Shown: positions 20,172 through 47,788, numbered from the stretch's first letter. The stretch: DNA of 64,000 nucleotides from Candidatus Levyibacteriota bacterium (GCA_963790825.1 CAWBPM010000002.1:295159-359158), one strand, 5' to 3'. Numbers and translations: made by a program. Notes: generated by a model not told the origin, from the sequence alone.

Positions 20172-20212
20172 TGGAATATATATTTTCCAAAAATATTAAC
20201 AGCTGAACGGAG

Positions 20213-20524: not shown

Positions 20525-20581
20525 AGAAAAGTCTCTGCCGCCGGAACTGCCACCGGCGGCAGATCCTGCCCGCCTACCCAG

Positions 20582-21382: not shown

Positions 21383-21490
21383 GCTGGGTTTATATATTTA
21401 TGCCTCTTATATTTATATAAGATATAATAGGAAGAACTTTTTTGTAATTTAGCTTCATTTTAAGCATATTTTTGTAGGTACTCGCACCTA

Positions 21491-25177: not shown

Positions 25178-25761
25178 TTAATAAAAAGCTTTTGCATTTT
25201 CTTAATTTCTCCCCACCTCTGCCTCAGCTCTCTAATATATCAAAATCCTAGTTAGCCAAAATAATCTACTTTCATTGGCTATAACGATACATTAGAGGCA
25301 ACTGAGGTTAAACTTTATACGTGATGTTTATGCCAAATAACGAAAATTTGTCTGTTTTTAGGGAATAGACTCTTAGCTCTCTGGTTCGAATCCCTTTTGG
25401 TTGTCAAAAGAGTTTAAGCTAACGAACTCGACCTAGGATTTATATCTTTGAAATTAAGATTGGTTTGTTCTATCAATCTATTCTCGCATTTGCAAACACG
25501 AGCGACCCGTTTGGTACCCCTGATGCACTTTCTTTTGAGCTCTTTCTGCCTTGTATTAACAAAATTAGGGTCGTTTATCAAGAATCCGAATCTATCGATA
25601 GTGATCAATTATTACCCCAGGATACTTCTTTCTTTAGGGGATATTATGTGAAGAATATGAATTAAAGAATTATTTATTTTAAGCACAGGCTGGCTGTTTC
25701 AGATTTCCCGAACTTTTGAACCTATTTAAAAGCACTCAGGGAGCGTGCTTCACCTGAATAA

Positions 25762-26022
25762 CTACTTTGCAACTCCTTCAAAAATCAGCTGTTTAATAAA
25801 AGTTTGATAAGGTACATCCATCTGATGCGCCTTTATTTTAACTCGATCAATTAATGTTTGTGGTAAGCGGATTGTAATAGGCTTACTGGTTAACTTTAAA
25901 TTAGGAAATTTCCAATTCTCAACATGACTATAGTCTACATACTCTGTAGAATCATGAGTCTGCCAAAATTTTCTTTCTTCATCTTCATTATTAAATTTAG
26001 GAATTTGCTTTAATTGTTTCAT
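25762..26022 (-). CDS. brnA: BrnA-type antitoxin (RHH/CopG-like)
   Basis: FNNEDEERKFWQTHDSTEYVDYS...PITIRLPQTLIDRVKIKAHQMDVPYQTFIKQLI matches the BrnA family. 4-nt gap to brnT. Confidence 0.75.
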   Translation of the reverse strand: MKQLKQIPKFNNEDEERKFWQTHDSTEYVDYSHVENWKFPNLKLTSKPITIRLPQTLIDRVKIKAHQMDVPYQTFIKQLIFEGVAK

Positions 26023-26026
26023 ATAT

Positions 26027-26320
26027 TTATCCTTCTTTGTACACCTCCATTTCTTTTTTGTTAGCTCCTCTTCCTGAGATTATTCTAATTTTATCTTTCC
26101 TGATGGCAAATACTACAAAAAGCATTTTATTTTCTGTAGTTTTTCCTATTGCAATGAAACGCTCTTCCTGTTCTTGATGTTTGAAATCTTTTTTTATCTT
26201 AACATCTTCGTCTAAAAATACTTCTTCCGTTTCATTTGGAGCTATACCATGTTTTTTATAGCTTTTATCTATATTCCACTTATCCCATTCAAATCCAAAA
26301 ATAGCATTCAAATCAATCAT
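26027..26320 (-). CDS. brnT: BrnT-type ribonuclease toxin (DUF497)
   Basis: FEWDKWNIDKSYKKHGIAPNETEEVF...IRIISGRGANKKEMEVY matches BrnT/DUF497. Confidence 0.8.
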   Translation of the reverse strand: MIDLNAIFGFEWDKWNIDKSYKKHGIAPNETEEVFLDEDVKIKKDFKHQEQEERFIAIGKTTENKMLFVVFAIRKDKIRIISGRGANKKEMEVYKEG

Positions 26321-26476
26321 CTGTACATATGATACATGTACAATAGTCGCATGTCAATAGCTAAAATTATCGCTTTAGCCTCTGCTGATCATAGTAAAGT
26401 ATTCGAGTCGCCTCAGGGTTCAAACATTCTTAAGTCTAACAAAGGTGAGATTATTTTTGAAGATTAATTAGCAATT

Positions 26477-26557
26477 TAGCCCGTTCTATCAATCTATTCG
26501 TATGTTTGATACTGTAGGCGTCCCCTTTGGTACCCCCTATGGGACGATGTCCGAACC
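26477..26557. repeat. tRNA-Leu-flank-derived element, copy B
   Basis: Shares tagcccgtt(c/a)tatcaatctattcg...cgtcccctttggtacc with 47652-47716 (the native tRNA-Leu 3-prime flank) and, more loosely, with 25465-25522. It adds the motif tggtaccccctatgggacgatgtccgaacc, which recurs at 44768-44797 and 45157-45186. Confidence 0.55.
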
Positions 26558-26643
26558 TATCTAACTATATCAATTGATCCTAACGAAAAATCCGAACTGC
26601 TGTTAATCCTTAACCTTTTTAAAATTAAGAAAGGAGAACAGCA

Positions 26644-27102
26644 GTGATAATGTCGTATTTTAACAAATTATTAGCCGTAAAAGAAGCGATAGATGTCTCA
26701 AAACTATATAACGAAAAGACGTTTTATAAGGCTTTTATTAAAGACTTAGAGAGAGTAAGAAATGAGGTAATTATTGAATCTCCATTTATTACCATTGAAC
26801 GGGTAAAATATTTTATACCGATATTTACTAAGCTAATAAAAAAAGGTGTACAAATTCATGTGTATACTCGTATAGCTGAAGAACAATCTGACGAAATGCA
26901 GTATCAAACTGAAAAGGGAATAGATCTACTAGAAGAGATTGGCGTTTTTGTTGTACCAGTGAATTGTTTTCTGCATAGGAAGTTAGCTATTATTGATAAC
27001 AATATAGTATGGGAGGGAAGTTTGAATATCTTATCGCAGAGAAACAGTCAAGAATTCATGCAAAGACTCAATAATCAATCAGAAGTAATCAAAATTGTAT
27101 AG
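26644..27102 (+). CDS. Phospholipase D-like (HKD) domain nuclease, Nuc-like
   Basis: The single HxK(x)4D motif HRKLAIIDNNIVWEGSLNI indicates a homodimeric single-HKD nuclease. Paralog of 46376-46825 (about 45% identity). Confidence 0.7.
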   Translation: MIMSYFNKLLAVKEAIDVSKLYNEKTFYKAFIKDLERVRNEVIIESPFITIERVKYFIPIFTKLIKKGVQIHVYTRIAEEQSDEMQYQTEKGIDLLEEIGVFVVPVNCFLHRKLAIIDNNIVWEGSLNILSQRNSQEFMQRLNNQSEVIKIV

Positions 27103-27130
27103 TTTTTAGGAATTAATATATATTGATAGT

Positions 27131-27412
27131 TTAATTTAATGTCGCATTTTCTTCCTTAACTTTTTCTGCCAAAAACATCTTAACTAAAGACTGATAAGGT
27201 ACATCACGTTTATTCGCAATAGTTTTGAGTGATGCAACTAACCATTCCGGAAGTCTGATTGAGACAGTTTTAGTTGAAGGCTTAAGTTTTAAGAATACAG
27301 GGTTAACAATAGCCGAACTGGCATCAAAATAGTCAAGCAAGTCATGGTTTGACCAGAACTCTCTTTCTTCATCTTCATTTTTAAACTCTGGTAATTGTTT
27401 GAGATTGCTCAT
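27131..27412 (-). CDS. brnA: BrnA-type antitoxin, second copy
   Basis: FKNEDEEREFWSNHDLLDYFD...VSIRLPEWLVASLKTIANKRDVPYQSLVKMFL. Confidence 0.75.
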   Translation of the reverse strand: MSNLKQLPEFKNEDEEREFWSNHDLLDYFDASSAIVNPVFLKLKPSTKTVSIRLPEWLVASLKTIANKRDVPYQSLVKMFLAEKVKEENATLN

Positions 27413-27424
27413 AATTTATTATAT

Positions 27425-27772
27425 TCACCTCTTTTCTGCTTTTTTCTCTTGTTCTTCTTGCGCTATATATAATGCTCTTCCTTTTTTACTCATATCCCAG
27501 GAAGCTATAACTCTGATTTTGTTATTTCTTATTGTAAAATAGATTTCAAGTCTTCTTCCTGCATCCGTTTTTCCAAGTATACCGAATCGTCGCTCATCAA
27601 GCGTTGAGTGTTTTGGATCTTTTAAGAAAATGAGTGGTTTATTAAAAAACACTTCCTCACTTTCTCTGGGTTCTGTATGATGTTTCTCCCTATTTTTAAT
27701 GATATTTACATCATTCCACTCAAAACCTTCTATATTCGCAAGATCATCCAGATCGAAATCATCTACGCTCAT
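27425..27772 (-). CDS. brnT: BrnT-type toxin, second copy
   Basis: FEWNDVNIIKNREKHHTEPRESEEVF...IRVIASWDMSKKGRALY. Confidence 0.8.
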   Translation of the reverse strand: MSVDDFDLDDLANIEGFEWNDVNIIKNREKHHTEPRESEEVFFNKPLIFLKDPKHSTLDERRFGILGKTDAGRRLEIYFTIRNNKIRVIASWDMSKKGRALYIAQEEQEKKAEKR

Positions 27773-27876
27773 ATGTTGTTATTATGTATATAACCATACA
27801 ATACAATTTGCAGTTTGTCAATAGCTTATAGTTAATATTTTACAACATAATAACATATATGTTATAAATAGCTATT

Positions 27877-28149
27877 ATGAGAACCTTGGAAGATTTTGAA
27901 AAAGAATTATTATCAGACCCTGAAGTTAAAAAGGAGTATGACAAACTTGCTCCTCGCTACGCATTGATTTCAGAATTAATAGCTGCACGTATAAAAAAAG
28001 GGTTAACGCAAAAAGAGTTAGCTGAAAGAATAGGAACTACACAATCATCCATTGCGCGATTAGAAGGGGGGAATGTAAATCCTTCTCTTGATTTTTTGGA
28101 GAAAATAGCACATGTATTAGAAAGTCAGCTTACAGTTCATTTTGCTTAA
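27877..28149 (+). CDS. XRE-family HTH protein (HigA-like antitoxin/regulator)
   Basis: LTQKELAERIGTTQSSIARLEGG is a classic XRE HTH. 90 aa. Divergent from BrnT-2 with inverted repeats in the shared intergenic region. Confidence 0.7.
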   Translation: MRTLEDFEKELLSDPEVKKEYDKLAPRYALISELIAARIKKGLTQKELAERIGTTQSSIARLEGGNVNPSLDFLEKIAHVLESQLTVHFA

Positions 28150-28409
28150 AACCTCATCTCATTATTCCAGCCTTCAAAATTTCAATAAAATGTCGTAAAG
28201 ATGTCATTCTGCGATATGAAGCATAGAAAGCTAGAAAAAATAATTCCTACTTTCAATAAATATTATTGGAAATGCTTCTGGCTATAACCATAGTTTATAG
28301 CCAAACCACTAGGAGGTAATCTTATGTCGTGAAATGATGTTTTACGACGCGGACGTAATATTGCAAGTTTAGCTCTACTACGGTTTAATTTCTTTAAGAG
28401 CTTATTGTT

Positions 28410-29195
28410 ATGATAAAAAAGATAGTATCAAGTATTTACACTGTTCTTGCCTCTCTATTTATAGCATTCGTAAGTTTTTGTATTATAGGAGTCTCATATG
28501 AAAAATCAAATTCATCTCATGTACAACCGTGGCAAATATTATTAGTTTTTGTGTTTCTCTTCAGCTTACTTATGTTTGTCGTTTCTGTCATTGGGAGCAT
28601 CCTGCATCATTTCTCAAAGGCGAGTACTCAAGTCACACCTAGCACTCCTTTAGAAACAAATGACTACATGACAGTACAAAATCAGAATTTTTCGATTCCA
28701 AATACCTCAAACATACAGCAAATGTCAACAAATCAAACTACTTATATTAATTATTCTCCTGTACAACGCTCTATAAATAGTAAGTTGATATTTAAAGTTA
28801 TTGCCAAATATGCATCTTTTATCTTTCTTATAAATCTTGCTTGTATATCCCTATCCGTGGTTATTTTTGGTGCTTTTGGGGCAATTTTACATTTTACTGA
28901 AGCATTAGGGATACTTTATGCTCTAATTTTTGGTAATATATTATCCTTGCCGTATGGATATATATTTTGTTATAAAGCCGTAGAAGAATATTTCCATAAA
29001 GGAGGGCTTACACAAAAGAATATTGGTTTTACGATTACTTTTACTGTTGTTATACTTGTTAGTTTAGCTTGGGGAATTATTAATTTACAACTTACTCATA
29101 CTTTTAATTTTCAGTATGGCTTCATACCTTTGCTACTTGCTATAATTGCTGCTAAAAGAGCAGAACGTAAATTTAATCAAGCTATACCCTCCTAA
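28410..29195 (+). CDS. Integral membrane protein, hypothetical
   Basis: 261 aa with six or more hydrophobic helices. Confidence 0.5.
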   Translation: MIKKIVSSIYTVLASLFIAFVSFCIIGVSYEKSNSSHVQPWQILLVFVFLFSLLMFVVSVIGSILHHFSKASTQVTPSTPLETNDYMTVQNQNFSIPNTSNIQQMSTNQTTYINYSPVQRSINSKLIFKVIAKYASFIFLINLACISLSVVIFGAFGAILHFTEALGILYALIFGNILSLPYGYIFCYKAVEEYFHKGGLTQKNIGFTITFTVVILVSLAWGIINLQLTHTFNFQYGFIPLLLAIIAAKRAERKFNQAIPS

Positions 29196-29278
29196 TGCCA
29201 CAGAGTTTGTTTTTAGTATCTCACTTTGACTAGTGGGTATATTACTCATGTCCTAAAACCGGGTTTATGCAACACGAA

Positions 29279-29572
29279 TTATTTCTTGTAGTTGAATGAC
29301 AACAGGGCGTACATAATGAAAAACGGCAGAAGAAGAAAAACAATATATTGAGTTAATAAATTACCTAAAGACAAATTATATAATGAATCTGGACATTGAC
29401 TTAATAGAGAATAGCTTCCCCAAGAAGTATGATGACTAAAATCTATCACCATAGGACATAATCTTGGAGCTGAAGACATTGACACTAGACGTGTCACAAA
29501 AACTACAATAATTGCGACACATGTGCTTATGAGTAGTTTGTGTTTTTGTAAATTAGATTTTCTCATCGTCAT
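29279..29572 (-). CDS. Small membrane protein, hypothetical
   Basis: 97 aa with two hydrophobic helices. Confidence 0.35.
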   Translation of the reverse strand: MTMRKSNLQKHKLLISTCVAIIVVFVTRLVSMSSAPRLCPMVIDFSHHTSWGSYSLLSQCPDSLYNLSLGNLLTQYIVFLLLPFFIMYALLSFNYKK

Positions 29573-29837
29573 TTTTAGTATTACTTATCTCTCTTTAGAA
29601 GTCAAACTATGCCTATAACGATAAATTGTCGGCATATGTTAAACAGGATTATGTATAAGTTTATACCAAATAACGGAAAGTCTGCGTTTCATGGTCACAA
29701 TATATTTAATACCAAAATTCCCCCAAAAGGGACTCGAACCTAAAATCGAGGGAAAATAGAGAAAACTGAGCCTAAAACTTACTTAGGTTCGAGCGTCCCA
29801 TACGGGTTGTTAAATTTCGAGGCTGTTTTTAAGGTGT

Positions 29838-29910
29838 ACCCCTGGAGGGATTCGAACCCCCGACCTTGTCGTTAGAACCGACCAGCTCTATCCTCTGAGC
29901 TACAGGGGCG
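29838..29910 (-). tRNA. tRNA-Arg (anticodon TCT)
   Basis: Manual cloverleaf fold: acceptor GCCCCTG/CAGGGGT (G1-U72), D-stem GCTC/GAGC, anticodon loop GTTCTAA, T-arm GGGGG-TTCGAAT-CCCTC. CCA is not encoded. Confidence 0.8.
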
Positions 29911-30024
29911 GATTTGTACTCATATTCTACCAATAATACCAACTTCCTGCAAACCAACCAACCCCTCCTCATTTTCTGCTTCGTTGCGAATAATAAAGAG
30001 ATTGCGTATAATAAAAGAGGTATG

Positions 30025-31020
30025 CTTGAAAAAATTATTCGCTATTTGCTAAAAAACCAGGTGATTCTGGCGCTTACTATTATCCTTATTTGCTGGTTTA
30101 TTATTCAGACTAGAGACATTTTAGTATTATTTTTTCTGGCATATATTGTAATGGCGGCACTTTTACCGTTCGTGTCTTTTCTGAAAACCAAACATTTACC
30201 TAAACTATTAACCGTTATCATTCCTTATATTGGTGTGTTATTTATTTTAATTTCTCTAGCTTTTCTCCTCGTTCCGTTTATTACCGCACAAATTCAATCG
30301 CTTTTTTCTATTTTCCCCCAATATCTGAACCATTCTGCTAATATTTTCGGTTTTAAAACAGATCCTAAGCAAATTCAAAATTATATCTCCAATGACTACA
30401 GTATCTTAGGATCAAATGCTTTGGCAGTCACCGGACAACTTTTCGGCGGTGTATTTTCTCTTTTAACGATATTTATCGTCAGTTTCTATATGCTTGTCTA
30501 TCATGAGCATTTTCAGAACTGGCTGGCAGGATTGGCTTCTCCCCATTCACATCTCCGCATTATTAAAATTCTCGGTGAAATTGATGATAGACTGGGAGCC
30601 TGGCTTCGGGGACAAGTAGTTTTGTCTTTCTTTGTCGGTCTTTTCAGTTGGATCGCATTAGCCCTACTCCATGTACCTTATGCCTTACCGCTGGCTATTA
30701 TAGCAGGATTTCTTGAAATACTGCCAACCATCGGTCCTATTCTCTCGGCAATTCCATCGGTTATCGTGGCACTGACTGTCTCACCGAGCCTTGCGTTTTG
30801 GGTAGTAGTAGCATATATTATTATTCAGCTTCTTGAGAGTAATCTATTGGTGCCGAATGTGATGCAGAAAGCCGTAGGACTGAATCCGATTGTTGTCATT
30901 TTTGGTATCACAATAGGAGTGACTTTAATGGGAATAACCGGAGCTCTACTTTCTCTTCCTTTTATTTCCTTTCTCGTTGTTTTGTTTAACAGTATCCACG
31001 CTGAGGAACCGAGTAAATAA
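30025..31020 (+). CDS. AI-2E family transporter (PerM/YdiK-like, UPF0118)
   Basis: Eight-TM topology with a conserved C-terminal region. The ORF-track start at 29914 abuts the tRNA, so the MLEKII start at 30025 is more plausible. Confidence 0.7.
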   Translation, partial: LEKIIRYLLKNQVILALTIILICWFIIQTRDILVLFFLAYIVMAALLPFVSFLKTKHLPKLLTVIIPYIGVLFILISLAFLLVPFITAQIQSLFSIFPQYLNHSANIFGFKTDPKQIQNYISNDYSILGSNALAVTGQLFGGVFSLLTIFIVSFYMLVYHEHFQNWLAGLASPHSHLRIIKILGEIDDRLGAWLRGQVVLSFFVGLFSWIALALLHVPYALPLAIIAGFLEILPTIGPILSAIPSVIVALTVSPSLAFWVVVAYIIIQLLESNLLVPNVMQKAVGLNPIVVIFGITIGVTLMGITGALLSLPFISFLVVLFNSIHAEEPSK

Positions 31021-31085
31021 CCCTTACTAACCACTAATCTCTTCTTTCCAAAGTGAATTGTTCTGAATCCTTTGCGAAAGACTAT

Positions 31086-31156
31086 GAGCGGGTGAAGGGA
31101 ATCGAACCCTCGTATCAACTTTGGAAAAGTTGTGTTCTGCCATTGAACTACACCCG
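31086..31156 (-). tRNA. tRNA-Gly (anticodon TCC)
   Basis: Acceptor GCGGGTG/CACCCGC, D-arm GTTC-AATGGCA-GAAC, anticodon stem CAACT/AGTTG with loop TTTCCAA, T-arm GAGGG-TTCGATT-CCCTT. Confidence 0.85.
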
Positions 31157-31238
31157 CGAGATCACTTCGTATTTTATACAAAATCACGGGTAATTGCAAA
31201 ATTTTGTGTGATCCTATTTATAGGAGTATAATTAACAT

Positions 31239-31934
31239 ATGAACCTGAAACGGATATTTAATGAGCTAAAAAAATACTCTCCGGAAGTATTCTTTAATCG
31301 GAAAAAAACCTATGTGTACGTAGCGATGGGGGACAGTTCGGTTGAAGGAATGGGTGCTACTAAACCGGAGAGGTCGTATACCGGAATTATTTATACTGCT
31401 CTTAAGGAAAAACGAAATTCGGTTGAGTATCATAATTTGGGGAAAGCATTTGCCAGTATCAGAGATGTTGTAGATTCACAGCTTGATAAGGCGATTTCTT
31501 TAAATCCCGATCTGATTACGCTGTCGGTCGGTGCCAATGATGTGCCGAAACGAACGCAACTTTTGCAATTTGAGAAAGATTTGAATTATCTTTTTAACCG
31601 GCTGAAAAATGAAACAACTGCGGAAATTATTATTAATACCATTCCCGACATGTCCTATACTCCGTTTTTAAAAGATAAACTCCATTTGCGGACACTCAGT
31701 AAAGTACTGGTGTGGAGGTTAAATCAAAAAATTAAGAAACAAGCTGAAAAAGCTCATATTTACGTTATTGATCTTTATGAACAAAGTAAAATTTTTCTGA
31801 AAAACTATCCGGAAGGAGTCTCGGAAGACGGATTCCATCCTTCTGATTTCGGCTACGCCCTGTGGGCTAATATTATCTTAATGCAAATTCCTCATATACT
31901 GCTTCAGCCAAAGCATAAATTTCGCTTCTGGTAA
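31239..31934 (+). CDS. SGNH/GDSL-family hydrolase
   Basis: Block I VAMGDSSVEG. Block III/V GANDVPK and DGFHPS. Confidence 0.75.
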   Translation: MNLKRIFNELKKYSPEVFFNRKKTYVYVAMGDSSVEGMGATKPERSYTGIIYTALKEKRNSVEYHNLGKAFASIRDVVDSQLDKAISLNPDLITLSVGANDVPKRTQLLQFEKDLNYLFNRLKNETTAEIIINTIPDMSYTPFLKDKLHLRTLSKVLVWRLNQKIKKQAEKAHIYVIDLYEQSKIFLKNYPEGVSEDGFHPSDFGYALWANIILMQIPHILLQPKHKFRFW

Positions 31935-31968
31935 GCACTCATGATATAATTTCTCACTTAAATTTCAT

Positions 31969-32823: not shown

Positions 32824-32856
32824 GAAGATTTCTTCGGGTCAATTTGCCTATCAGGT

Positions 32857-35256: not shown

Positions 35257-35381
35257 TACAGTATTATAGTATATATTATAGGATATGTCAAGTTGTACAT
35301 TATTTATGTTTCCAGGCACAAATAGGCGTTATGTGTCAAAATATTAAGCTTTTTGCTATACTACGTTTGAATTTTTTAATT

Positions 35382-36647: not shown

Positions 36648-36723
36648 ACCTAGAATTAGGGATTTATGCAAAGATTTTTTTTAACTTATATATAAAAATA
36701 GAGTTAGCAATTACGAGTTACTA

Positions 36724-37215: not shown

Positions 37216-37396
37216 ATTATATATTATACTACAGTTTTATCATTTTTACAAATAAAGCAAAAAGTATTATTTTTTTTATTTAACTTAGAATTTATTTCTA
37301 TAATTCCCATTACCTTCGGGACGAGGTACTTATGTGCTTAATAATAACTGTTATTGATTTTATAAACAACCAAGTATATACTCTGAGAAATCCTAT

Positions 37397-38239: not shown

Positions 38240-38349
38240 ACCTACTCTCATTTACTTTCCTTCAACCGACAATTTTCAGGTCTTCCTGTTCATGCTACAA
38301 TTACTGAGAAGATAGATAGTTAAAAGTATAACCTGCGCCAATTAACTGT

Positions 38350-40065: not shown

Positions 40066-40234
40066 ATATTATCTAGTCGGGGATACATTACCTTATCCGA
40101 AACTACTATTTAGAAAACCAAAAACGATATTCCACAGCTTTATCTATGGATTGAATTCTAATCCAGCCTCTCCAGCCGATCTTTGTCTTCTTGATACTGT
40201 AAGATGGCTTGGAAAATAGTCTTGAGACGGATAT

Positions 40235-41590: not shown

Positions 41591-43095
41591 GGTTTATAAA
41601 GTGAATCTATTTTTTTAAATTGAAATATGGCATATAGAACTGCAAGTGATACTAAGATTGCTGTTACAGTTAGGATAATGAAGTTTTGTATGGCTGAATC
41701 TTCACTGGTTGAAGCAAGCTCCAAACTTTGATTATCCCTGCTCGCCGCAAACGCAGAAGTTATAAAAAATGTTGCAATCTGTGATCTGATTTTTGTCCCA
41801 TCCGGTCTTGATACGACAGCATAGGTTGTATGTTTTCCAGGATCAAGTGGCTTCTCTAGATCATAGGTCCATACCCCGTTTGCGTCAGTTTTCACGGTCA
41901 CGATGAGAGGATTTGAATAAATCAAAAGCGTAATAATATAATTCGGGACTGATTTCCCTGTTATGGTAAGTGCTGTTTTATTTTGTACTTGTGTATTTTT
42001 AATCGTTGTAATACCGGTTTTTGTATCCACTGGAAAAGTGAGAGTATTAAAACGGGACGGTAGAATTATAGTTCTCTCAGTATTTAACTCCCCATTTTGT
42101 TGATTCGCAACTGTTATTTCGATTGAAGGAATAAGTATTTTTGTACCTGTGTTGCTTGATGCAACCGCATTCAGTACGTATTGTCCGTTTGGAGTATTTG
42201 TTGTATCCCAGCTAAATTTTGTTGATGTTGCATTGTCCGGAATGAAAGCTTGACCTAAATATAAATATCCTGTGTCATTATTGACTAAAACTTTGAGTCC
42301 AATATCAACTGAGGAGTTTCCTATACCACTTATGTTTAATACTATTGATTTATTTACTGTTTGTCCATTTTTAAGATTTTGTATGAAATAACTGGGTGCT
42401 GTCTCGATCTGACTGGGTGAGGTATAGCTGTTTGGTAATACCGCTATTGTTGGCGTGACCACATCAATGGTATTCCAGAATTGGCCAACAACAGGAGTGG
42501 GGGTAGGCGCAGCAAGCAAGGTATTTACTGTACTAAGTGTCGGTGTTGGAAGTAATGATGAGTAAGGAGTGGGAGACCATGTGGGTGTGGGAAAGTAATA
42601 AGAGCTCTGTGTTGGTATCAAGGTTACTGTTGGAGGATATATTATTGGAGTACTTGTTGGTGAGGGTATATTTGTTGGTGTGGCAGTAGGCTGCTGTATA
42701 CAGCAAACTTGTTGAGTTGTTCCGCCCGGTATATCAGAACAATCAGATGGGCCGGTATTTGTTTCACTACCGGAACATGACTGTGCGCAATGTCCTCCGG
42801 TTGCACTGCACTGTGTGCCGGTATATCCCCCGACGCAGCAAACTGCTGTACCACCATTACCATTACTATCGGTACAACTATAATTACTATCAACTGATCC
42901 GCCATCCGGTCCGGGACAATGAACCGGATTTACACATTTTCCGCCGCTGCTATTTCCGCACATATTGGTAGAAGATAACACCTGCGAAGCTATATTCGGA
43001 GAAGTGGATTTAGAATTAGAATGTGAGAGAAGGAAAATAAAAAATAGCTCAATGCAGATGAGGCAAATGATTAGTAAGAGCATAATTCTTTTCAT
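41587..43095 (-). CDS. Secreted Cys-rich, Pro/Thr-rich protein with a C-terminal anchor, hypothetical
   Basis: Signal peptide, Cys-rich block of about 20 Cys, PT-rich linker, beta-rich domain and a C-terminal hydrophobic helix. Confidence 0.5.
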   Translation of the reverse strand: MKRIMLLLIICLICIELFFIFLLSHSNSKSTSPNIASQVLSSTNMCGNSSGGKCVNPVHCPGPDGGSVDSNYSCTDSNGNGGTAVCCVGGYTGTQCSATGGHCAQSCSGSETNTGPSDCSDIPGGTTQQVCCIQQPTATPTNIPSPTSTPIIYPPTVTLIPTQSSYYFPTPTWSPTPYSSLLPTPTLSTVNTLLAAPTPTPVVGQFWNTIDVVTPTIAVLPNSYTSPSQIETAPSYFIQNLKNGQTVNKSIVLNISGIGNSSVDIGLKVLVNNDTGYLYLGQAFIPDNATSTKFSWDTTNTPNGQYVLNAVASSNTGTKILIPSIEITVANQQNGELNTERTIILPSRFNTLTFPVDTKTGITTIKNTQVQNKTALTITGKSVPNYIITLLIYSNPLIVTVKTDANGVWTYDLEKPLDPGKHTTYAVVSRPDGTKIRSQIATFFITSAFAASRDNQSLELASTSEDSAIQNFIILTVTAILVSLAVLYAIFQFKKIDSLYKP

Positions 43096-43419
43096 AATTT
43101 AATAATGAGTTATCTATAAATAAAAAGCAAGAAAGAATTAGTATTAAACAATTCTTGAACTTATCAAAAATATATTGCCACAGTAGTCCAAATGGTTAAT
43201 CCTGTAGTTAAAGATACTATTTGTCGTTTTATTTTCTGAACTTTACTGCGGACGGAGAGAAAGTACTATCACACCAAGCTAAAGAACTATTTGCAACCCT
43301 TTAAAACTGAGTTCTCTGTTATCTAGCCGGGGATACAGTATGATATTCGGAACTTCTATCTGGAAAACCCTAACGATATTCCAAAGCTCTTTTTAGTTTC
43401 TTATGTTTTAGTAAAAATC

Positions 43420-43930
43420 TTATCCTCTATTTTTGTTTAAATATTTTCTTGTTATAAACAATATTACAGGTATAAAGATATAACTAATCAATCCTATAAT
43501 TACTAAATTATAATTATGGCGGTAATATGCTGAATTAAAATATTGAACAATAAAGAATGAACCACCAATGAATAAATAGATAAATAGAAGAATTATATGA
43601 CTCCAAATCCACCTTATCCTAGTTTTAATACTTGTGAATTTAGTTGATAAAAAGTAGGCATATATTATTCCTAATCCGTATGTAATAAATTGCCAATATA
43701 TAGGAATAGAAAAATAATCTCCACCATATCCAAATATATTTCCTAATTGTTGAATAATTATTATTGGAAGAAAAAATAATGCTTTTAGAAATATTATGAT
43801 ACCAATTAGTATGTTGAATAGGGGAATGGTTCTTAAGCTAATATAGTAAACATTAGTATTAATTGTGAAAAATATATCAATAGATAATATTAATACAAAA
43901 AAATAGGAACAGAATTAGTTTATTACTCAT
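43420..43930 (-). pseudogene. Frameshifted small polytopic membrane protein gene in a ~20% GC island
   Basis: ATG at 43928-43930 gives 17 codons and then a stop. A +1 shift at the A7 run (43897-43903) opens a ~150-codon frame (VLILSIDIFFTINTNVYYISL...IPVILFITRKYLNKNRG) ending at 43420. That frame contains no Met. The region is strongly AT-rich compared with its flanks. Confidence 0.35.
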
Positions 43931-44027
43931 TATTTACATTATTGCACAAAATTAGGTGAATACAAGTATAAAAGACAGGATTTATATATTGGATAACCTT
44001 TTCTTTTATAAAGCTAACTGAGTAAAG

Positions 44028-44101
44028 TCGGGGACAAAGGACTTGAACCTTCGACCTCGCGGTCCCAAACCGCGCGCTCTAGCCAACTGAGCTAGTCCCC
44101 G
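44028..44101 (-). tRNA. tRNA-Pro (anticodon TGG)
   Basis: Acceptor CGGGGAC/GTCCCCG (C1-G72 is typical for Pro), D-arm GCTC-AGTTGGCTA-GAGC, anticodon stem CGCGG/CCGCG with loop TTTGGGA, T-arm GAAGG-TTCAAGT-CCTTT. Confidence 0.85.
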
Positions 44102-44227
44102 AGTAGCAAGTGTATTATACAATAAGGTAAAGGTGAAAGAAACAGTAGGTGACTGAGTAGCAGGCAAAACATTATTTCAACAAATATAAGAAGCAAAAGA
44201 AAAGTAGTATTAAATCAAAGGCCTCAA

Positions 44228-44674
44228 TCACCGGGTCCTCGGAAGAGTCCGCTTATAATAATCGTGTATCGCTATTTTATAAACCTTTCTACGTTGCTCT
44301 TCCGTCAGCGAGGTAAAATTTCGGGTATACCTTTCGGGTACCGGTAAATATTCAAATTCACCTTTAATAAGATCAGCTTCTTGAGTAGCAGCATCATTAA
44401 TTTCCACTCTGAAAAGAGCACCAGGTTTTCGCTGTGTTTCCTGAATATATTCACTACTAATAATAAAAGTATTACCAAGGGTTTCATTAGATAAAAAGGG
44501 GAAAGATACGATTGTCATGCCGTCTGACTGATTTTCTTTGGACCCAAAAGATATTATAGTAGCTACAGTAGGCCACCTACGCTCAGGCCGCTGGGGTAAC
44601 GGTTCTACGCGAGAAACCCCACCAGCAGAATTTCTAAAACCAGAGCTCTCAAGTTCTTTTGCTAATATAGCCAT
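44228..44674 (-). CDS. Hypothetical protein
   Basis: 148-aa ORF with good coding appearance. Confidence 0.4.
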   Translation of the reverse strand: MAILAKELESSGFRNSAGGVSRVEPLPQRPERRWPTVATIISFGSKENQSDGMTIVSFPFLSNETLGNTFIISSEYIQETQRKPGALFRVEINDAATQEADLIKGEFEYLPVPERYTRNFTSLTEEQRRKVYKIAIHDYYKRTLPRTR

Positions 44675-44879
44675 TAGTATTAATATTATTAAAGTTATAT
44701 AAGTATAAAATTAAAGGAGGGTATGAAAATTGTAATATTTTGAGGAGTAATTATTTACCAAGACATCTGGTACCCCCTATGGGACGATATTCGAACCCAT
44801 ATTCAATAACTTGGTCCTACAGAAAAAGAGTTTATGTTGAAAAATATTAAATGAGGGAAACTATGAAGAAATGTGTATA

Positions 44880-45080
44880 TTATTTTGCTTTATTTGCTCT
44901 TCCTCTCCAAAGAAAACTACCAAACAACATCATAACTCCTACAACTATTCCTGCTACAAGTACTGGCATACCAGCTGCTCCAGATGATAGTGAACATAAA
45001 CCCAATATTATTGCAACTACACCTGCGCCTAATGTAAGACCCGCCATATATATTGCTTTTTCTCGTGGTGTATTTCCCAT
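44880..45080 (-). CDS. Small two-helix membrane protein
   Basis: The minus-strand 66-aa product is strongly hydrophobic (GLTLGAGVVAIILGLCSL, VLVAGIVVGVMMLFGSFLW). It is preferred over the overlapping plus-strand ORF. Confidence 0.3.
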   Translation of the reverse strand: MGNTPREKAIYMAGLTLGAGVVAIILGLCSLSSGAAGMPVLVAGIVVGVMMLFGSFLWRGRANKAK

Positions 45081-45259
45081 GTTTTGATTATGGTATACGA
45101 TATTTTAAATGTCAATAGAAGAGTTTTGAAAACCCAAATATATTATAGGTCTTGGTACCCCATATGGAACGATGTCCGAACCTACGTAGCCTCACTTGAG
45201 TCTAAAGAAAAGACCGAATTGTTGCTAATTCTACAAAAAAATAAAACGGGATAAATCTA

Positions 45260-46198
45260 TTAGCTTTTATGTTGTTTAACAAAATTATCAAGATCTGCTT
45301 TTTCAATACGAATAAATTTTCCGCCTAATTTTACAGCTTTTAGTTTATTACTTCTAACATACCTTCTAACGCTTTCCGGATCAATCTGAAGTATTCTTGC
45401 CACCTCAATGGTTGTATAAAAAATTTGATTTTGTTGCTTTAACGAAATTGATTCCTGCGGCTTGAATGCTTCTAGGTAAATATCCAAAGATCTATTTATC
45501 GCATCATAGATTAATTCATAGTATGCGTTCATCTGTTCTTTTGTTTGCCCTATTTCCAGTGCAGTAAGATATCTATTTCTTTCTTCTTTTTTAATAATTG
45601 CAGGAGGAAAACCTGTCTGGATTAAGATAAAATTCATTAAAAGTCTGGCTGTCCGACCATTACCATCAGTAAACGGATGAATAGTTACCAGTTTAAAATG
45701 AGCATCACTAGCTAATTGTACTGGATTATCATTTGCAGTTCGTAACCATTGCACAAATTCGTTCATTAAGTCTGGTACCTTTAATGGGTTAGGAAGAATA
45801 GTTGTTGAGCCGGCTATTCTAACCGGAGTACTTCGTAATCTTCCAGCATTTGTATCATCAATTTTTTCTAATATAATTCTATGAATCTGCAGAATATCTT
45901 GAAATGTCAGTTCTTCTCTCTTTTTTTGCCGGGCTAGTCCTTGAATATAGGAAAAAGCCTTTGCATGATTAATTGCCTCTAAATGTTCATTTAGACTTTT
46001 ACCTTCCACTGTAATCCCTTTTTCCACAACAAGAGCAGTCTCTTGCCGAGATAGCGTATTCCCTTCAATTGCATTTGAAGTATAAGTTAATTCAACCCTA
46101 TACCACTCTTCAAGGTTATTTTCTATTGTCTTTGAAAAGGGTTTATAGCTATCCAAAAGGGATTTTTTTAGAAGAAGATCTTTTAGAATTTCATTCAT
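45260..46198 (-). CDS. fic: Fic-family protein with a C-terminal excisionase/MerR-like HTH
   Basis: Canonical HPFTDGNGRTARLL. The C-terminal IEVARILQIDPESVRRYVRSNKLKAVKLGGKFIRIEKADLDNFV resembles an Xis-type HTH. Confidence 0.8.
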   Translation of the reverse strand: MNEILKDLLLKKSLLDSYKPFSKTIENNLEEWYRVELTYTSNAIEGNTLSRQETALVVEKGITVEGKSLNEHLEAINHAKAFSYIQGLARQKKREELTFQDILQIHRIILEKIDDTNAGRLRSTPVRIAGSTTILPNPLKVPDLMNEFVQWLRTANDNPVQLASDAHFKLVTIHPFTDGNGRTARLLMNFILIQTGFPPAIIKKEERNRYLTALEIGQTKEQMNAYYELIYDAINRSLDIYLEAFKPQESISLKQQNQIFYTTIEVARILQIDPESVRRYVRSNKLKAVKLGGKFIRIEKADLDNFVKQHKS

Positions 46199-46375
46199 AC
46201 ATTGCTATTTTATACTACTTAAGACGACTTGTCAAGGATAAAAGTAGCATTGTATAGTAATGAATAGCAATAAGCCTATAATGGTGTACCCCTGGTGCAA
46301 ATTGCTTCGAACCCCTGCTGGCTCATTTTAATAATTTGATGGAGGCTTATCAAGCTGCCGGAGAGGAGACTAGGC

Positions 46376-46825
46376 ATGAATAACCTTCTTATTTCCCAAT
46401 TATTCGATGAGACAACCTTCTATGAACAGTTCATACATGATTTAGAAAAGTGCCAACAAGAGGTTATAATCGAAAGCCCGTTTATCACAACTGATAGAGC
46501 ACAACTATTTTTGCCGATTTTTCAACGCCTGCTGGATAAAGGAACCAAAATTTACATAGTTACCAGAGATCCGAAAGAACATTTTGAGGGAATGGAGGTT
46601 CAGTCTGAAGCAATTATACGAAAGTTTGAAGAAATGGGAGTCCAGACATTTCTCTGTTTAGGCAATCATCACCGGAAACTTGCGATTCTTGATAAACAAA
46701 TACTTTGGGAGGGAAGCTTGAATATCCTCTCTCAAACACATAGTATGGAAATTATGCGAAGAATTGATAATGACAGCCTAACTTTAGAAATGTTTCGCTT
46801 TCTTAAATTTTACAAATATATCTGA
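46376..46825 (+). CDS. Phospholipase D-like (HKD) nuclease, paralog 2
   Basis: HHRKLAILDKQILWEGSLNILSQ HKD motif. Colinear with 26644-27102. Preceded by the tRNA-Arg 3-prime-end motif at 46283-46295. Confidence 0.7.
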   Translation: MNNLLISQLFDETTFYEQFIHDLEKCQQEVIIESPFITTDRAQLFLPIFQRLLDKGTKIYIVTRDPKEHFEGMEVQSEAIIRKFEEMGVQTFLCLGNHHRKLAILDKQILWEGSLNILSQTHSMEIMRRIDNDSLTLEMFRFLKFYKYI

Positions 46826-46864
46826 GATTTCTGGTTGAATATGTGGGAATTATTTATCGAAAGA

Positions 46865-47458
46865 CTATGCTTGTTGACTCTTGATAAAATCTTCAAGCTC
46901 TTGAAGAGGATTATTGCCATATTTTTCTTTGAAGTATTCCCCTTGTAATACTAATCCTTGTAATTCATGTGGTTGCAACATGTACTTAATTCCATTGTTA
47001 CCAGAACCAGGTTGTATTCTTTTTTCTTGAGGTGGTAACACAGCTAGTCCTCCTACATCAGCTTTATCTTGTAACCAATGAAGGGTTTCTTCTACGCCAA
47101 AACTCTCATAATACTGTCTTACTGTTAGTTGTGGCTTTATTGGGATATCACTACCATAATCTTCTACTATGGTTGCTGATAAATCCATTCCATCTAATTT
47201 TCTTAGCTCGTCAACTTGTAGCCCGATAAGCTTTTCTCCATTTTCAATTTTTACGAAACCATTTATTCCTGTCATAGAACCCGTATGTTCACCTATCTTA
47301 AGCTTAGGACTATCTGCTCGCTGGTACCTTTTTAACACCCATTTCATTCCAGAATCGAGTCCCATTAGCGCTTCGTTTAAAACGGGCGCTTCTGCACTTA
47401 GATTATAGTGCTGTTTGAGACTATTTATTACTCCTTCATAAGGCGCAGGGGATTCCAT
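46865..47458 (-). CDS. Hypothetical protein
   Basis: 197-aa ORF with good coding appearance. Confidence 0.45.
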   Translation of the reverse strand: MESPAPYEGVINSLKQHYNLSAEAPVLNEALMGLDSGMKWVLKRYQRADSPKLKIGEHTGSMTGINGFVKIENGEKLIGLQVDELRKLDGMDLSATIVEDYGSDIPIKPQLTVRQYYESFGVEETLHWLQDKADVGGLAVLPPQEKRIQPGSGNNGIKYMLQPHELQGLVLQGEYFKEKYGNNPLQELEDFIKSQQA

Positions 47459-47651
47459 ATTACATATTAGTAGTATACCAAAATATAATAATGATATTTT
47501 TAGATTCTACATATTCAACTACGCATCCAGTTTAAAAACACACTAGAAAATAAGTTTTCGAACATCCCATAAAGTGTTCGAGTCCCTCCAGGATTAGCCC
47601 TTCTTTGAGGCCATGAAAAATAAGATTAAATTTGAGGACTAATTAGTAGAT

Positions 47652-47716
47652 TAGCCCGTTATATCAATCTATTCGAGGTATTGACAAAGACATCGTCCCC
47701 TTTGGTACCGCGAGAG
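47652..47716. repeat. tRNA-Leu 3-prime flank element, native copy C (bipartite GTACCAAAGGGGACG ... GAATAGATTGATAnAACGGGCTAAT on the tRNA strand)
   Basis: Overlaps the 3-prime end of tRNA-Leu and the sequence immediately downstream. Copies lie at 26477-26534 and, more loosely, at 25465-25522. Confidence 0.55.
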
Positions 47717-47788
47717 AGACTCGAACTCTCATGTCCTTGCGGACGAAGGCTCTTAAGGCCTTTGTGTCTACCATTCCACCACCGCGGC
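47703..47788 (-). tRNA. tRNA-Leu (anticodon TAA) with encoded CCA and a long variable arm
   Basis: 86 nt. Acceptor GCCGCGG/TCGCGGT, D-region TGGTGGAATGGTAGACAC, anticodon stem AAGGC/GCCTT with loop CTTAAGA, variable arm GTCC-GCAA-GGAC, T-arm GAGAG-TTCGAGT-CTCTC, then ACCA. Confidence 0.85.

Follow-up and report, generated by a model that had tools for sequence, protein, structure and literature searches.

The repeats scattered through the 64-kb stretch of Patescibacteria DNA analyzed here (the window) are very probably att-site scars and 3′ pseudogene stubs of large serine recombinase (LSR) genes, left by integrative elements that target the extreme 3′ ends of tRNAs. Some of these elements are conjugative-type. 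The host is a small-genome bacterium, and the scars are serial, belong to decayed elements and lie within a tRNA array. Serial att-site scars were among the options raised in a preliminary description of this DNA, and LSR 3′-end homology, hybrid sites and synteny now support that option. The kind of system is already known; its less familiar features are the targeting of tRNAs and an attP placed within the reading frame of the recombinase itself.

Two repeat arms meet at a core that matches a tRNA end

The repeats consist of a left arm (L) of ~140 nt and a right arm (R) of ~75 nt, each present three times (L at 25365-25511, 26395-26527 and 47570-47702; R starting at 26535, 44775 and 45160). 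Both arms converge on a single core of 7 nt, TGGTACC. It is the tRNA-Leu(taa) 3′ end in reverse complement, and these 7 nt are the only part of the tRNA proper that the repeat includes. The L copies at 26395-26534 and 47570-47709 are 71–75% identical across 140 nt (E 1.5e-18), and the third copy is partial (~25365-25520, pairwise E 6e-4). R-arm similarity extends 60–84 nt past a 30-mer, TGGTACCCCCTATGGGACGATGTCCGAACC, that occurs at 26528-26557 with no mismatches and at 44768-44797 and 45153-45182 with 2 mismatches each; the 30-mer had 0 matches in 100 shuffles of the sequence. Among R arms, 26527-26610 and 45152-45232 are 77% identical (E 8e-11), and 26528-26590 and 44768-44827 are 78% identical (E 4.5e-6). 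All pairwise similarities begin or end within TTGGTACC, and the core with ~25 nt on either side is the best-conserved part of the arms. The copies are old, since they are only 71–88% identical (12–29% diverged). Searches of the 64-kb window with nhmmer profiles of L and R gave no further strong copies.

Copies of a tRNA-Leu flank had been described at 26477-26534 and 25465-25522. These copies exist and are longer than described, but an origin of the elements in the tRNA-Leu 3′ end together with native flanking sequence does not hold: the "flank" is an LSR 3′ coding end brought in by an integrating element. The three copies of the 30-mer likewise exist, with the third lying 4 nt from the position first given (45157-45186). 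Because homologous copies occur in other metagenomes, the repeats are not confined to the window, nor are they explained by a single local duplication.

Left arms encode the C-terminal end of a large serine recombinase

Within L, ATTAGCCCGnTATATCAATCTATTCG encodes ISP(I/L)YQSIR. This is the conserved C-terminus of an LSR family with at least 1,400 proteins in Patescibacteria, and most genes of the family run into the antisense strand of a tRNA. An HMM of this family ranked the frames of two arms, L47 and L26 (Table 1), first among 4,022 six-frame fragments of the window, at HMM positions 486–516 of 519. The E-values of such short stubs are modest when taken alone (0.035 and 0.057), so the case rests on several agreeing lines of evidence. 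L47 matches by blastn the LSR 3′ ends of four metagenome sequences (labeled L101, L082, L119 and L116), with further support from tblastn with LSRs, and its region is 79% identical across 145 nt to the region of L121 in which an LSR end meets tRNA-Leu. The L47 translation (21 residues, not shown) continues into the antisense tRNA. No LSR similarity was found upstream of L47 by tblastn or the LSR HMM, and the Fic and 197-aa genes (45260..47458) fill the expected place of the LSR gene body; the 197-aa protein had no family match in Pfam and other family scans. The L26 frame crosses the core and reaches a stop at a position identical to that of the L101 and L122 LSRs. L25 occupies the expected place of the LSR of the T4SS element itself, and the sequence to the right of its core at 25512 is ambiguous, either a 9-nt match to a tRNA-Arg end or a decayed R arm.

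When metagenomes were scanned for the L motif at a set distance from GTACC, seven real matches emerged, to which L003 adds an eighth. In 6 of the 8 the motif lies 29–30 nt from an antisense tRNA 3′ end or a tRNA 3′ fragment, and the tRNAs next to the motif were Glu-ctc (three times), Leu-tag and Arg-tct. The remaining two (L079/L101) have the attP form, L-core-R. In L082 the motif ends a 510-aa ORF with Resolvase, Recombinase and Zn_ribbon_recom domains, and this ORF stops inside tRNA-Glu. In 88 of 114 family members the tail has an RT/KT motif placed where antisense reading of a tRNA T-arm would put it, a reading that was checked against the DNA in L082, L116 and L121. One further tail among the 114 is of the R-encoded form, GAPSGTMSEPI. 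Neither an LSR nor any other recombinase was found in the 64-kb window by family scans, tblastn or HMM (the recombinase-domain scan covered ORFs of at least 110 aa), and activity of the sites therefore cannot be claimed.

The right arm encodes an alternative recombinase tail

R encodes an alternative, unintegrated LSR tail (GTPYGTMSEPI followed by a stop codon) and appears to form the P′ half-site of attP, imitating the acceptor stem and T-arm of a tRNA. The resemblance of the 30-mer to a tRNA, pointed out previously, is real as imitation; the 30-mer is no tRNA fragment but consists of LSR C-terminal codons in the putative half-site. In LSR systems attP is an imperfect inverted repeat of ~50 bp with a dinucleotide at its center. 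A repeat of this kind, CGTCCC..TTTGGTACCCCCTAT..GGGACG, spans 26515-26546 and is symmetric about GTAC, and L101 has an analogous repeat (ATCC..GAGTACC..GGAT). In all three R arms (R26, R44 and R45) a T-loop-like motif, (T/C)CGAAC, has its first base at position 24, counted from the core start, and in tRNA-Leu TCGAAC has its first base at position 19; global alignments of R with the tRNA contain a net 5-nt gap whose position is not unique. The offset is read from three related copies and one tRNA and depends on one guessed motif. In LSR attachment sites, the motif for the zinc-ribbon domain is shifted 5 bp toward the center in attB compared with attP (PMC3783163), a rule with which the offset seen here would be consistent.

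Hybrid sites and intact relatives

The arms exchange partners at the core. L is joined to R at 26528 and to the tRNA at 47703, and R is joined to other sequences (X) at 44768 and 45153, with all breakpoints in TTGGTACC, as in the hybrid sites of LSR systems. From this pattern, L-core-R is predicted to be attP-like, L-core-tRNA an attL and X-core-R an attR. L26, the core and R26 together form the attP-type site, and L47, the core and tRNA-Leu(taa) the attL-type junction. The sequence left of 45153 (X1) is unrelated to L, which makes 45153 an attR-type junction; X1 holds the promoter-like site of a small membrane gene. R45 retains the tail reading frame and stop codon, and its junction bounds on the left a decayed element of 2.55 kb (45153-47709). 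The R44 site is a second, older attR-type scar whose left side (X2) is the 5′ region of a 148-aa gene and resembles 43829-43937, not L. The small membrane gene lies in the 385-bp unit 44768-45153.

In L122 and L101 the LSR is read across L-core-R, and a PLDc_2 gene comes next (LSR-attP-PLD). Window 26476-27107 is collinear with the LSR-end/attP/PLD region of L101 (637 nt, E 3e-34) and with that of L122 (E 2e-33). PLD26 is 50% identical to the L122 PLD protein and shares with L101 and L122 the order LSR end, attP, PLD, and PLD46 is 62% identical to the product of the same L122 gene, which directly follows attP. L121 contains an intact gene for the T4SS coupling protein (T4CP), a 110-aa ORF and an LSR integrated at tRNA-Leu(taa) beside a carboxypeptidase (Peptidase_S11) gene, the same position as in the window. 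Window 20225-24196 is syntenic with L121 5466-9498, after which the 110-aa ORF and LSR follow in L121; the T4CP is 37% identical to that of L119, and the DUF2958 and relaxase-like proteins are 74% and 35% identical to those of L121. Genes with Resolvase, Recombinase and zinc-ribbon domains are present in L082, L116, L119, L121 and L122. As the window contains only LSR stubs of ~45 codons, we class its sites as LSR-family remnants and not as a functioning system. In the flanks available for the intact relatives, no attR match was found. The relatives carry the tRNAs Leu, Pro, Gly and Arg in a compact array right after the carboxypeptidase gene; in the window, where ARAGORN finds only 4 true tRNAs, this array has been invaded and is broken by 3.6-kb and 12.9-kb inserts.

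Table 1. Positions of the att-type sites, recombinase remnants and neighboring genes
Feature	Position	Strand	Evidence or remark
tRNA-Leu(taa)	47703..47788	-	ARAGORN, Rfam; putative B′ side of attB
Core at tRNA-Leu(taa)	47703-47709		last 7 nt of the tRNA, GGTACCA (TGGTACC on the plus strand)
L47	47570..47702	+	LSR 3′-terminal remnant, ~45 codons, stops just upstream
L26	26395..26527	+	second LSR 3′ remnant (putative P arm); translates to N, stop, QFSPFYQSIRMFDTVGVPFGT
Core + R26	26528..26612	+	putative P′ half-site; LSR tail ..TPYGTMSEPI-stop; conserved spacer before PLD gene
L25 + core	25365..25520	+	third LSR 3′ remnant (KIGLFYQSILAFANTSDPFGT); nhmmer E 2e-34
Core + R45	45153..45237	+	GTPYGTMSEPT-stop; attR-type junction; nhmmer E 2.7e-19
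Core + R44	44768..44850	+	stop codon lost; attR-type scar; E 3.6e-16
PLD46	46376..46825	+	PLDc_2 (Pfam); cargo of decayed element at tRNA-Leu
PLD26	26644..27102	+	PLDc_2 (Pfam); directly downstream of attP-like site 26528
Fic/HTH_17 gene	45260-46198	-	Pfam
197-aa gene	46865-47458	-	between attR45 and attL47
DUF2958, relaxase-like (Replic_Relax), T4CP	20225..24196		conjugation-type module, immediately upstream of the LSR in intact relatives

Proposed mechanism

In an intact element, attP would lie within the last ~10 codons of the LSR gene, with the end of L (..CGTCCCCTT) as its P arm and the start of R, the mimic of the tRNA acceptor and T-arm, as its P′ arm. The crossover core would be TGGTACC, which is identical to the GGTACCA end of the tRNA. 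Following the mechanism established for LSRs, dimers of the enzyme would bind attP as well as attB, which comprises the 3′ end of the tRNA and the flank downstream of it. Each site would be cut at its central dinucleotide, located inside GTAC, and the halves would then rotate and be rejoined. In this scheme we infer how the strands are exchanged, which dinucleotide is central and in what order the insertions took place. One product of integration would be an L-core-tRNA attL, with the tRNA intact and the LSR frame running into the antisense tRNA, and the other an X-core-R attR. On this scheme 47703 would be an attL, 45153 and 44768 attR-type sites, 26528 an unrecombined attP-type site followed by its own PLD cargo gene, and 25512 the stub of the T4SS element's own LSR. 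Deletion, or overwriting by toxin-antitoxin, Fic and other genes, would have removed the LSR gene bodies. With these gone the sites would be fossils, on which at most an LSR from another part of the genome could act. Two attR-type scars in tandem (accretion) count against this explanation and are unexplained by it, because LSRs normally recombine attP with attB only.

Comparison with known systems

Known LSR att systems include those of Listeria phage A118/LI, Bxb1 and phiC31 (Rutherford et al. 2013, PMC3783163). The family described here resembles them in its intact homologues with Resolvase, Recombinase and zinc-ribbon domains, in short sites with an imperfect inverted repeat around a small core, and in the hybrid logic of P-core-P′, P-core-B′ and B-core-P′. 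For classic serine integrases the known targets are protein-coding genes or intergenic sites, whereas here integration is aimed at the very 3′ ends of tRNA genes, with several different tRNAs used within the family. The family also differs in the location of attP, which is part of the 3′ coding end of the recombinase gene, so that integration would swap the C-terminal tail, and in that the window has stubs only.

Streptococcus elements of the ICESt1/ICESt3 type reportedly undergo tandem accretion at tRNAs or other hot spots and leave CIMEs (cis-mobilizable, recombinase-less remnants). The window is similar in having several att-type sites of the same orientation downstream of one tRNA and decayed elements without integration genes that are bounded by att sites, with toxin-antitoxin and accessory cargo nearby. 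The ICESt1/ICESt3 elements use tyrosine integrases and a longer repeated core, whereas the present system, known from sequence, is of the serine family with a 7-nt core. In SSV1-type archaeal integrases attP lies inside int, and in mycobacteriophage integration-dependent immunity it lies in the 3′ end of the repressor gene. As in those systems, the crossover falls inside the element's reading frame and the integrated and free C-termini differ (tRNA-antisense versus GTPYGTMSEPI-stop), but those are tyrosine-recombinase systems, and here only the last ~10 codons change.

Alternative explanations

The element 45153-47709 and the 385-bp unit 44768-45153 might still be moved in trans, as CIME-like or miniature non-autonomous units, by an LSR elsewhere in the 751-kb genome, which we consider unlikely. 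Like a CIME, the larger unit (X1-core-R45 ... PLD46 ... L47-core-tRNA-Leu) carries Fic, PLD and 197-aa genes without integration or conjugation genes and is bounded by attR-type and attL-type sites in the correct orientation. The conservation around the core, the retained frame and stop of R45 and the abundance of the LSR family in Patescibacteria also speak for mobility. However, the window has neither an LSR nor a copy of the 109–113 aa accessory ORF, the arms have diverged by 12–29%, R44 has lost its stop codon, and excision would need a directionality factor as well. The miniature mobile elements of the preliminary description thus survive weakly, as recombinase-less remnants bounded by att sites, and not in the stronger sense. 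MITE-like transposons were rejected: no inverted-repeat pair surrounds any copy, and the copies end at the shared recombination core instead.

It is quite improbable that L and/or R, as the shared promoter or regulatory module once suggested, are kept for driving or controlling adjacent accessory genes (here PLD, small membrane, BrnT and 197-aa genes). R26 is directly upstream of PLD26, and the ~45 nt between LSR stop and PLD start are conserved among the window, L101 and L122, so a regulatory element for PLD may lie inside R. But the shared L arms contain no sigma-70-like consensus and the R arms one weak 9/12 site, on the minus strand of R26 (26606-26577); BrnT and the small membrane gene have strong promoter-like sites of their own outside L and R, the genes after R44 and R45 are on the opposite strand, and coding homology explains L. 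A superficial likeness to an acceptor stem and T-arm (TGGTACC...CGAACC) is what the 30-mer and its downstream sequence would offer as decayed tRNAs or small RNAs, a reading to which we give almost no credence: ARAGORN reported no match, Rfam none on the L and R regions up to E 10 (no cloverleaf or covariance support), folding z-scores ranged from −0.98 to +1.16 with no fold common to the copies, and the sequence is in the LSR tail frame, kept as the peptide GTPYGTMSEPI. Equally hard to credit are tyrosine-integrase islands or integron-like cassettes, with L and R as long attP arms or attC-like sites. Although tyrosine integrases classically target tRNA 3′ ends and the gene-sized units between repeats resemble cassettes, Pfam, PHROG and NCBIfam scans found no tyrosine recombinase, the tRNA repeat is 7 nt only and not a substantial 3′ part, and L has been shown to come from a serine recombinase gene, as its 3′ end. 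An integron cassette array was rejected as there is no IntI and the arms are coding remnants without a significant or attC-like fold.

Implications for Patescibacteria

The reading as att-site scars of LSR elements bears on the T4SS clusters of Patescibacteria, most of which lack a relaxase and for which non-conjugative roles have been proposed (Microb Genom 2025, PMC12102498); in the text of that paper covered by a term search, recombinases and tRNA go unmentioned. The window, L119 and L121 have VirB4, T4CP and pilin genes of the same kind as those clusters. They differ in that the T4CP/relaxase-like module directly adjoins an LSR, which abuts a tRNA in L121 and a tRNA-like tail in L119, or, in the window, an LSR stub. 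Tentatively, and with more doubt than confidence, we propose jointly that the LSR family carries attP in its own last codons, that the tail switch is an integration sensor and that T4SS clusters are LSR-derived. If true, integration would exchange ..G(T/A)P(Y/S)GTMSEPI for an antisense-tRNA tail across the LSR family, and this switch could sense the integration state, affecting recombinase stability or directionality. Many "chromosomal" Patescibacteria T4SS clusters would then be, or derive from, LSR-integrated conjugative elements, which would invade tRNA arrays and subsequently decay to stubs as in the window.

Repeat modules and their common core

There are three copies of the 30-mer in the window at two or fewer mismatches (starts 26528, 44768 and 45153) and none in 100 shuffled sequences. 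The threefold repeat of the preliminary description is thus borne out, as are its first two positions, the third having been placed 4 nt off. The reported copy of the tRNA-Leu flank also exists and is longer than was described: 26395–26534 aligns with 47570–47709 over 140 nt at 71–75% identity (E 1.5e-18), and a third copy of this type lies at about 25365–25520. The 30-mer is the beginning of a repeat of ~75–85 nt. In all pairwise comparisons similarity begins or ends within TTGGTACC, and for this reason we divided the family into a left arm L (~140 nt; L25, L26 and L47), the core TGGTACC and a right arm R (R26, R44 and R45). Read on the opposite strand, the core gives GGTACCA, the end of tRNA-Leu. 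Profile searches found no additional strong L or R copies within the window, and a degenerate 27-nt R motif had 0 matches in the genome, viral and metagenome collections; the source species stands practically alone in these collections, with its nearest carboxypeptidase relative at 66% identity.

Features of the window and of related loci in other genomes and metagenomes
Feature	Locus	Position	Strand	Composition or source
tRNA-Leu(taa)	window	47703–47788	minus	ARAGORN
Site 47703	window	47703		L-core-tRNA-Leu
Site 26528	window	26528		L-core-R
Site 25512	window	25512		L-core-other
Site 44768	window	44768		other-core-R
Site 45153	window	45153		other-core-R
Toxin-type genes	window	1905–2594; 14500–14892; 25762–26320; 27131–27772; 45260–46198		
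109–113-aa ORF	L116	9660–9998		
109–113-aa ORF	L119	9676–10017		
109–113-aa ORF	L082	6469–6798		
109–113-aa ORF	L121	9666–9998		
109–113-aa ORF	L122	4512–4847		
Recombinase 3' stubs	L104	4078–4204; 7120–7244		ISP.YQSIR-coding
Recombinase 3' stub	L074	9116–9190		ISP.YQSIR-coding
Recombinase 3' stub	L003	12930–13042		ISP.YQSIR-coding

The left arm corresponds to the last codons of a large serine recombinase

The exact 13-mer TATCAATCTATTC occurs 30 nt from a tRNA-Arg end at locus L003 and 29 nt from GGTACC in all three window L copies. The metagenome collection was scanned for TATCAATCTATTC-N28-32-GTACC, yielding 52 matches, seven of which are real; the others are mostly chance or one unrelated gut sequence. 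In five of the seven (L074, L082, L083, L104 and L113) GTACC marks the 3' terminus of an antisense tRNA or tRNA fragment, the tRNAs being Glu(ctc) three times and Leu(tag) once, while the other two (L079 and L101) have L fused to R-like sequence. At L082 the motif ends a 510-aa ORF with Resolvase, Recombinase and Zn_ribbon_recom domains, the last codons of which read NTEISPIYQSIRMFDNKGLSLSTASGS with the stop inside tRNA-Glu, and ATTAGCCCGaTATATCAATCTATTCG therefore encodes the ISPIYQSIR ending of a large serine recombinase (LSR). The window copies translate accordingly, L26 through R26 as QFSPFYQSIRMFDTVGVPFGTPYGTMSEPI followed by a stop codon and L25 as KIGLFYQSILAFANTSDPFGT. An HMM built from 121 family members places the frames of L47 and L26 at the top of 4,022 six-frame fragments, at HMM positions 486–516 of 519. 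The motifs of L26 and L47 are closely preceded by stop codons, LSR similarity does not extend beyond the three stubs, and no window ORF of at least 110 aa has a recombinase domain. That the L motif seems 100% conserved in DNA between genomes is mostly an effect of ascertainment, the motif itself having been part of the search pattern; loci fetched without this bias (L116, L121 and L122) carry synonymous changes in it.

L thus codes for the C-terminal end of a serine recombinase, and the proposed origin from the tRNA-Leu flank does not hold; our own initial model, a tyrosine-integrase attP with long arms, was dropped on the same grounds. The T-arm-like left end of L, GTTCGAGTCC, was considered as an inverted tRNA-Arg 3' fragment (17/20 match) and rejected, as it encodes LSR residues (I/V)RV(L) in intact genes; the likeness is probably coincidental. 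Two ORFs were assessed as divergent integrases and set aside, one of 319 aa (661–1620) and one of 261 aa (28410–29195): neither has a family match, and inspection of the former's translation revealed no recombinase motifs.

The right arm is an alternative recombinase tail

At L101 the LSR frame continues through L-core-R, ending in ISPIYQSIRTFDKGVIRLSTPSGSKFVPI and a stop codon, and is followed by a PLD-family (PLDc_2) gene. L122 has the order Replic_Relax, 111-aa ORF, LSR with the tail GAPSGTMSEPI, and PLDc_2. Window positions 26476–27107 are collinear with both L101 (E 3e-34) and L122 (E 2e-33), and R26 closes the frame in GTPYGTMSEPI, its stop codon being homologous to theirs; R45 closes it with GTPYGTMSEPT. 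The L122 PLD protein is 62% identical to that of the window gene PLD46 and 50% to PLD26. The R profile finds R only in L101, L122 and the window. The continuous frame and the collinearity indicate that L-core-R is the unrecombined form (attP) and L-core-tRNA the integrated form. The tails of the family agree: an RT/KT motif is present in 88 of 114 C-terminal tails at the distance expected for an antisense tRNA T-arm (e.g. GETRTPT, GNRTP), a reading checked against DNA in L082, L116 and L121, and the R-type ending occurs in one tail of 114. The tails of P0157, P0167 and P0226 read ..SRT.TPL...ALKA(F/P)VSAIPPPR, like the window frame through tRNA-Leu, and for P0226 the tRNA was confirmed as Leu(taa) in L121.

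The attP at 26528 contains the inverted repeat CGTCCC...GGTACC...GGGACG centred on GTAC. The T-loop-like (T/C)CGAAC of every R arm (three of three) is 5 nt more distant from the core than is TCGAAC in the tRNA. In LSR attachment sites the zinc-ribbon-domain motif of attB is displaced 5 bp toward the centre relative to attP (Rutherford et al. 2013, PMC3783163). The offset is consistent with this published shift, and R may be a P'-type mimic of the tRNA acceptor and T-arm, which would account for the tRNA likeness noted in the preliminary description. The core comprises the last nucleotides of the tRNA, so that integration leaves the tRNA intact and replaces the downstream flank alone.

Intact elements in relatives

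The intact locus L121 has the order DUF2958, relaxase-like gene, T4SS coupling protein (T4CP), 110-aa ORF and LSR, with the LSR 3' end overlapping tRNA-Leu(taa) and a Peptidase_S11 carboxypeptidase gene next, the same tRNA and carboxypeptidase arrangement as around 47703. Window positions 47649–47793 match L121 at 79% identity (E 5e-30). The window block 20225–24196 (DUF2958, relaxase-like gene, T4CP) is syntenic with that of L121; identities are 74% for DUF2958 and 35% for the relaxase-like protein, and 37% for T4CP versus L119. L25 lies exactly where the LSR of this T4SS element is expected. A minimal 2.2-kb version (HTH gene, 112-aa ORF, LSR) is found at L116 between tRNA-Asn and tRNA-Leu(gag). 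No attR partners of L082 or L121 were found within the available flanks. Bare LSR stubs adjoin tRNAs at L003, L074 and twice at L104, the partners being tRNA-Arg, a 3' fragment of a tRNA, tRNA-Leu(cag) and tRNA-Leu(tag); elements in Patescibacteria have therefore decayed recurrently to a stub plus a tRNA.

A 109–113-aa ORF with no Pfam family directly precedes every intact LSR of the family and is absent from the window. The L116 and L119 versions are 47% identical and share a C-terminal motif with that of L082 (by eye). This ORF is a candidate accessory or directionality factor.

Insertions into an ancestral tRNA array

The carboxypeptidase gene adjoining tRNA-Leu is 55–64% identical to genes of Candidatus Levyibacteriota and Patescibacteria MAGs, in which it is followed by a compact tRNA array, Leu(taa), Pro, Gly, Arg and often His (three tRNAs, Leu, Pro and Gly, within 255 nt in L001; four within 470 nt in L009). 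In the window, ARAGORN places tRNA-Pro, tRNA-Gly and tRNA-Arg to the left of tRNA-Leu in the same minus-strand order, with splits of 3.6 kb (Leu–Pro) and 12.9 kb (Pro–Gly) and a T4SS-rich region beyond tRNA-Arg. The accessory genes of the preliminary description are therefore insertions into the tRNA array.

Site 47703 is an attL (L-core-tRNA) and site 45153 is of attR type (other-core-R); X1, the sequence left of 45153, is unrelated to L and contains a promoter-like site of the small membrane gene. The two sites bound a decayed element of 2.55 kb (R45, Fic, PLD46, a 197-aa gene and the L47 stub), which when circularly permuted has the L122 order LSR-attP-PLD; the Fic gene was apparently inserted into it. 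Site 44768, 385 bp further left of 45153, is a second, older attR-type scar. Site 26528 is an attP-type relic with its own PLD gene, situated among BrnT/BrnA pairs between the T4SS block and tRNA-Arg. At site 25512 lies what is left of the LSR gene of the T4SS element; on its right, 9 nt agree with the end of tRNA-Arg (GTACCCCTG), or alternatively the sequence there could be a decayed R arm. LSRs are not known to recombine attL with attP, and tandem scars therefore need degenerate B-arm reuse, homologous recombination between related elements, or deletions.

Two further readings of flanking sequence were rejected. X2, the sequence on the left of 44768, was considered as an L arm with an internal deletion, but the multiple alignment does not support this and X2 matches the 5' part of a pseudogene paralogue (43829–43937). 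X1 as a decayed L arm likewise has no support there, and its TCAAT is part of a promoter -35 box.

Serial LSR att-site scars together with recombinase-gene stubs very probably explain the repeat family. Among the options put forward earlier, serial att-site scars stood up, L being the LSR gene 3' end and R the alternative end and probable P' half-site. A shared promoter module did not: the common L arms contain no promoter consensus, the R arms have one weak 9/12 site (R26, minus strand, 26606–26577), and strong promoter-like sites of the minus-strand genes nearby are located elsewhere than in L and R. One candidate common promoter, TTGATA-N16-TAATTA on the minus strand of L, fails the consensus scan. 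Expression of a small RNA from these repeats found no backing either, as R has no tRNA or other Rfam match at E up to 10 and no folding signal on either strand (z-scores −0.98 to +1.16).

Other repeats in the window

The ~900 nt at 43100–44000 lack any ORF of at least 30 aa and are probably a decayed paralogue downstream of tRNA-Pro; within them, 43829–43937 resembles 44653–44758, the 5' region of the 148-aa gene. A 78-nt intergenic repeat (40069–40146 and 43319–43395, 78% identity, E 6e-10) flanks a histidine-kinase/Big_13 gene pair at both ends. Another, at 25276–25359 and 29610–29689 (71% over 86 nt; also 28279–28303), opens with the near-palindrome TGGCTATAACGATA...GCCA; one copy is immediately to the left of L25, another upstream of a 97-aa gene beside tRNA-Arg, and a further one near 28279.

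The T4SS island

A 32-nt repeat (84%) made up of the 3' end of tRNA-Arg(tct) and 22 nt of its flank occurs at 498–560 and 29814–29845. Its copies are 29.3 kb apart and bracket T4SS genes (VirB4-like, TrbL/pilin, PrgI-like, relaxase-like and T4CP). On the left the copy extends into GTTACGCAATATCGAACAC, seemingly a P'-type tRNA-Arg T-arm imitation with a 5-nt insertion. The region is a candidate LSR-type conjugative element of ~29 kb at tRNA-Arg, with a bracketing repeat too short for significance alone. Just downstream of tRNA-Arg, 29722–29806 holds an inverted R-like pair, GGGACTCGAACCTAA ... TTAGGTTCGAGCGTCCC, the minus-strand arm of which matches the R profile weakly (E 0.014); these may be further decayed att scars.

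Inside the island, a SAM riboswitch on the minus strand (14145–14249) exceeds the gathering score at 49.7 bits and is situated upstream of two small paralogues, the genes at 13651–14073 and 13211–13612, with 69% DNA identity. Short repeats, perfect or nearly so, and families of repeats containing hairpins (13125–13164 and 15270–15309; 17173–17225 and 20142–20194; 15557–19299) occur between small unknown genes and look like terminator or intergenic modules common to paralogous genes. Toxin-type genes (AbiEii, two Fic/DOC genes and two pairs of BrnT/BrnA) cluster beside the att scars and in the island; the BrnT/BrnA pairs are ~60% identical to each other in DNA.

Known and less familiar features

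The kind of system is known, both as serine-integrase att sites and as integrative elements that accumulate and decay at tRNA genes. It is less familiar that tRNA 3' ends, usually used by tyrosine integrases, are targeted by an LSR family, which here has at least 1,400 members and is apparently mostly from Patescibacteria. Also less familiar are the link of LSRs to T4CP and relaxase-like modules and, as read from the sequences, the predicted placement of attP within the recombinase's own last codons, by which integrated and free forms would encode different tails. SSV-type integrases and integration-dependent immunity offer analogies for an in-gene attP. We found no description of a tRNA-targeting LSR family with an in-frame attP in the literature searched, and a term search of the text of a Patescibacteria T4SS survey (PMC12102498) returned no mention of recombinases or tRNAs.

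The apparent tRNA-derived repeat family in the window is ordinary biology, the fossils of site-specific integration. Site-specific integration explains why genes for PLD nucleases, Fic, BrnT/BrnA and a small membrane protein lie between tRNAs that are adjacent in relatives. The short ISPIYQSIR-encoding stub beside a tRNA is a practical annotation marker of decayed elements in CPR genomes, and the compact natural attP/attB pairs with tRNA targets are offered for integrase engineering. The position of the LSR beside T4CP and relaxase-like genes in intact relatives bears on the mobility of T4SS clusters in epibiotic bacteria.
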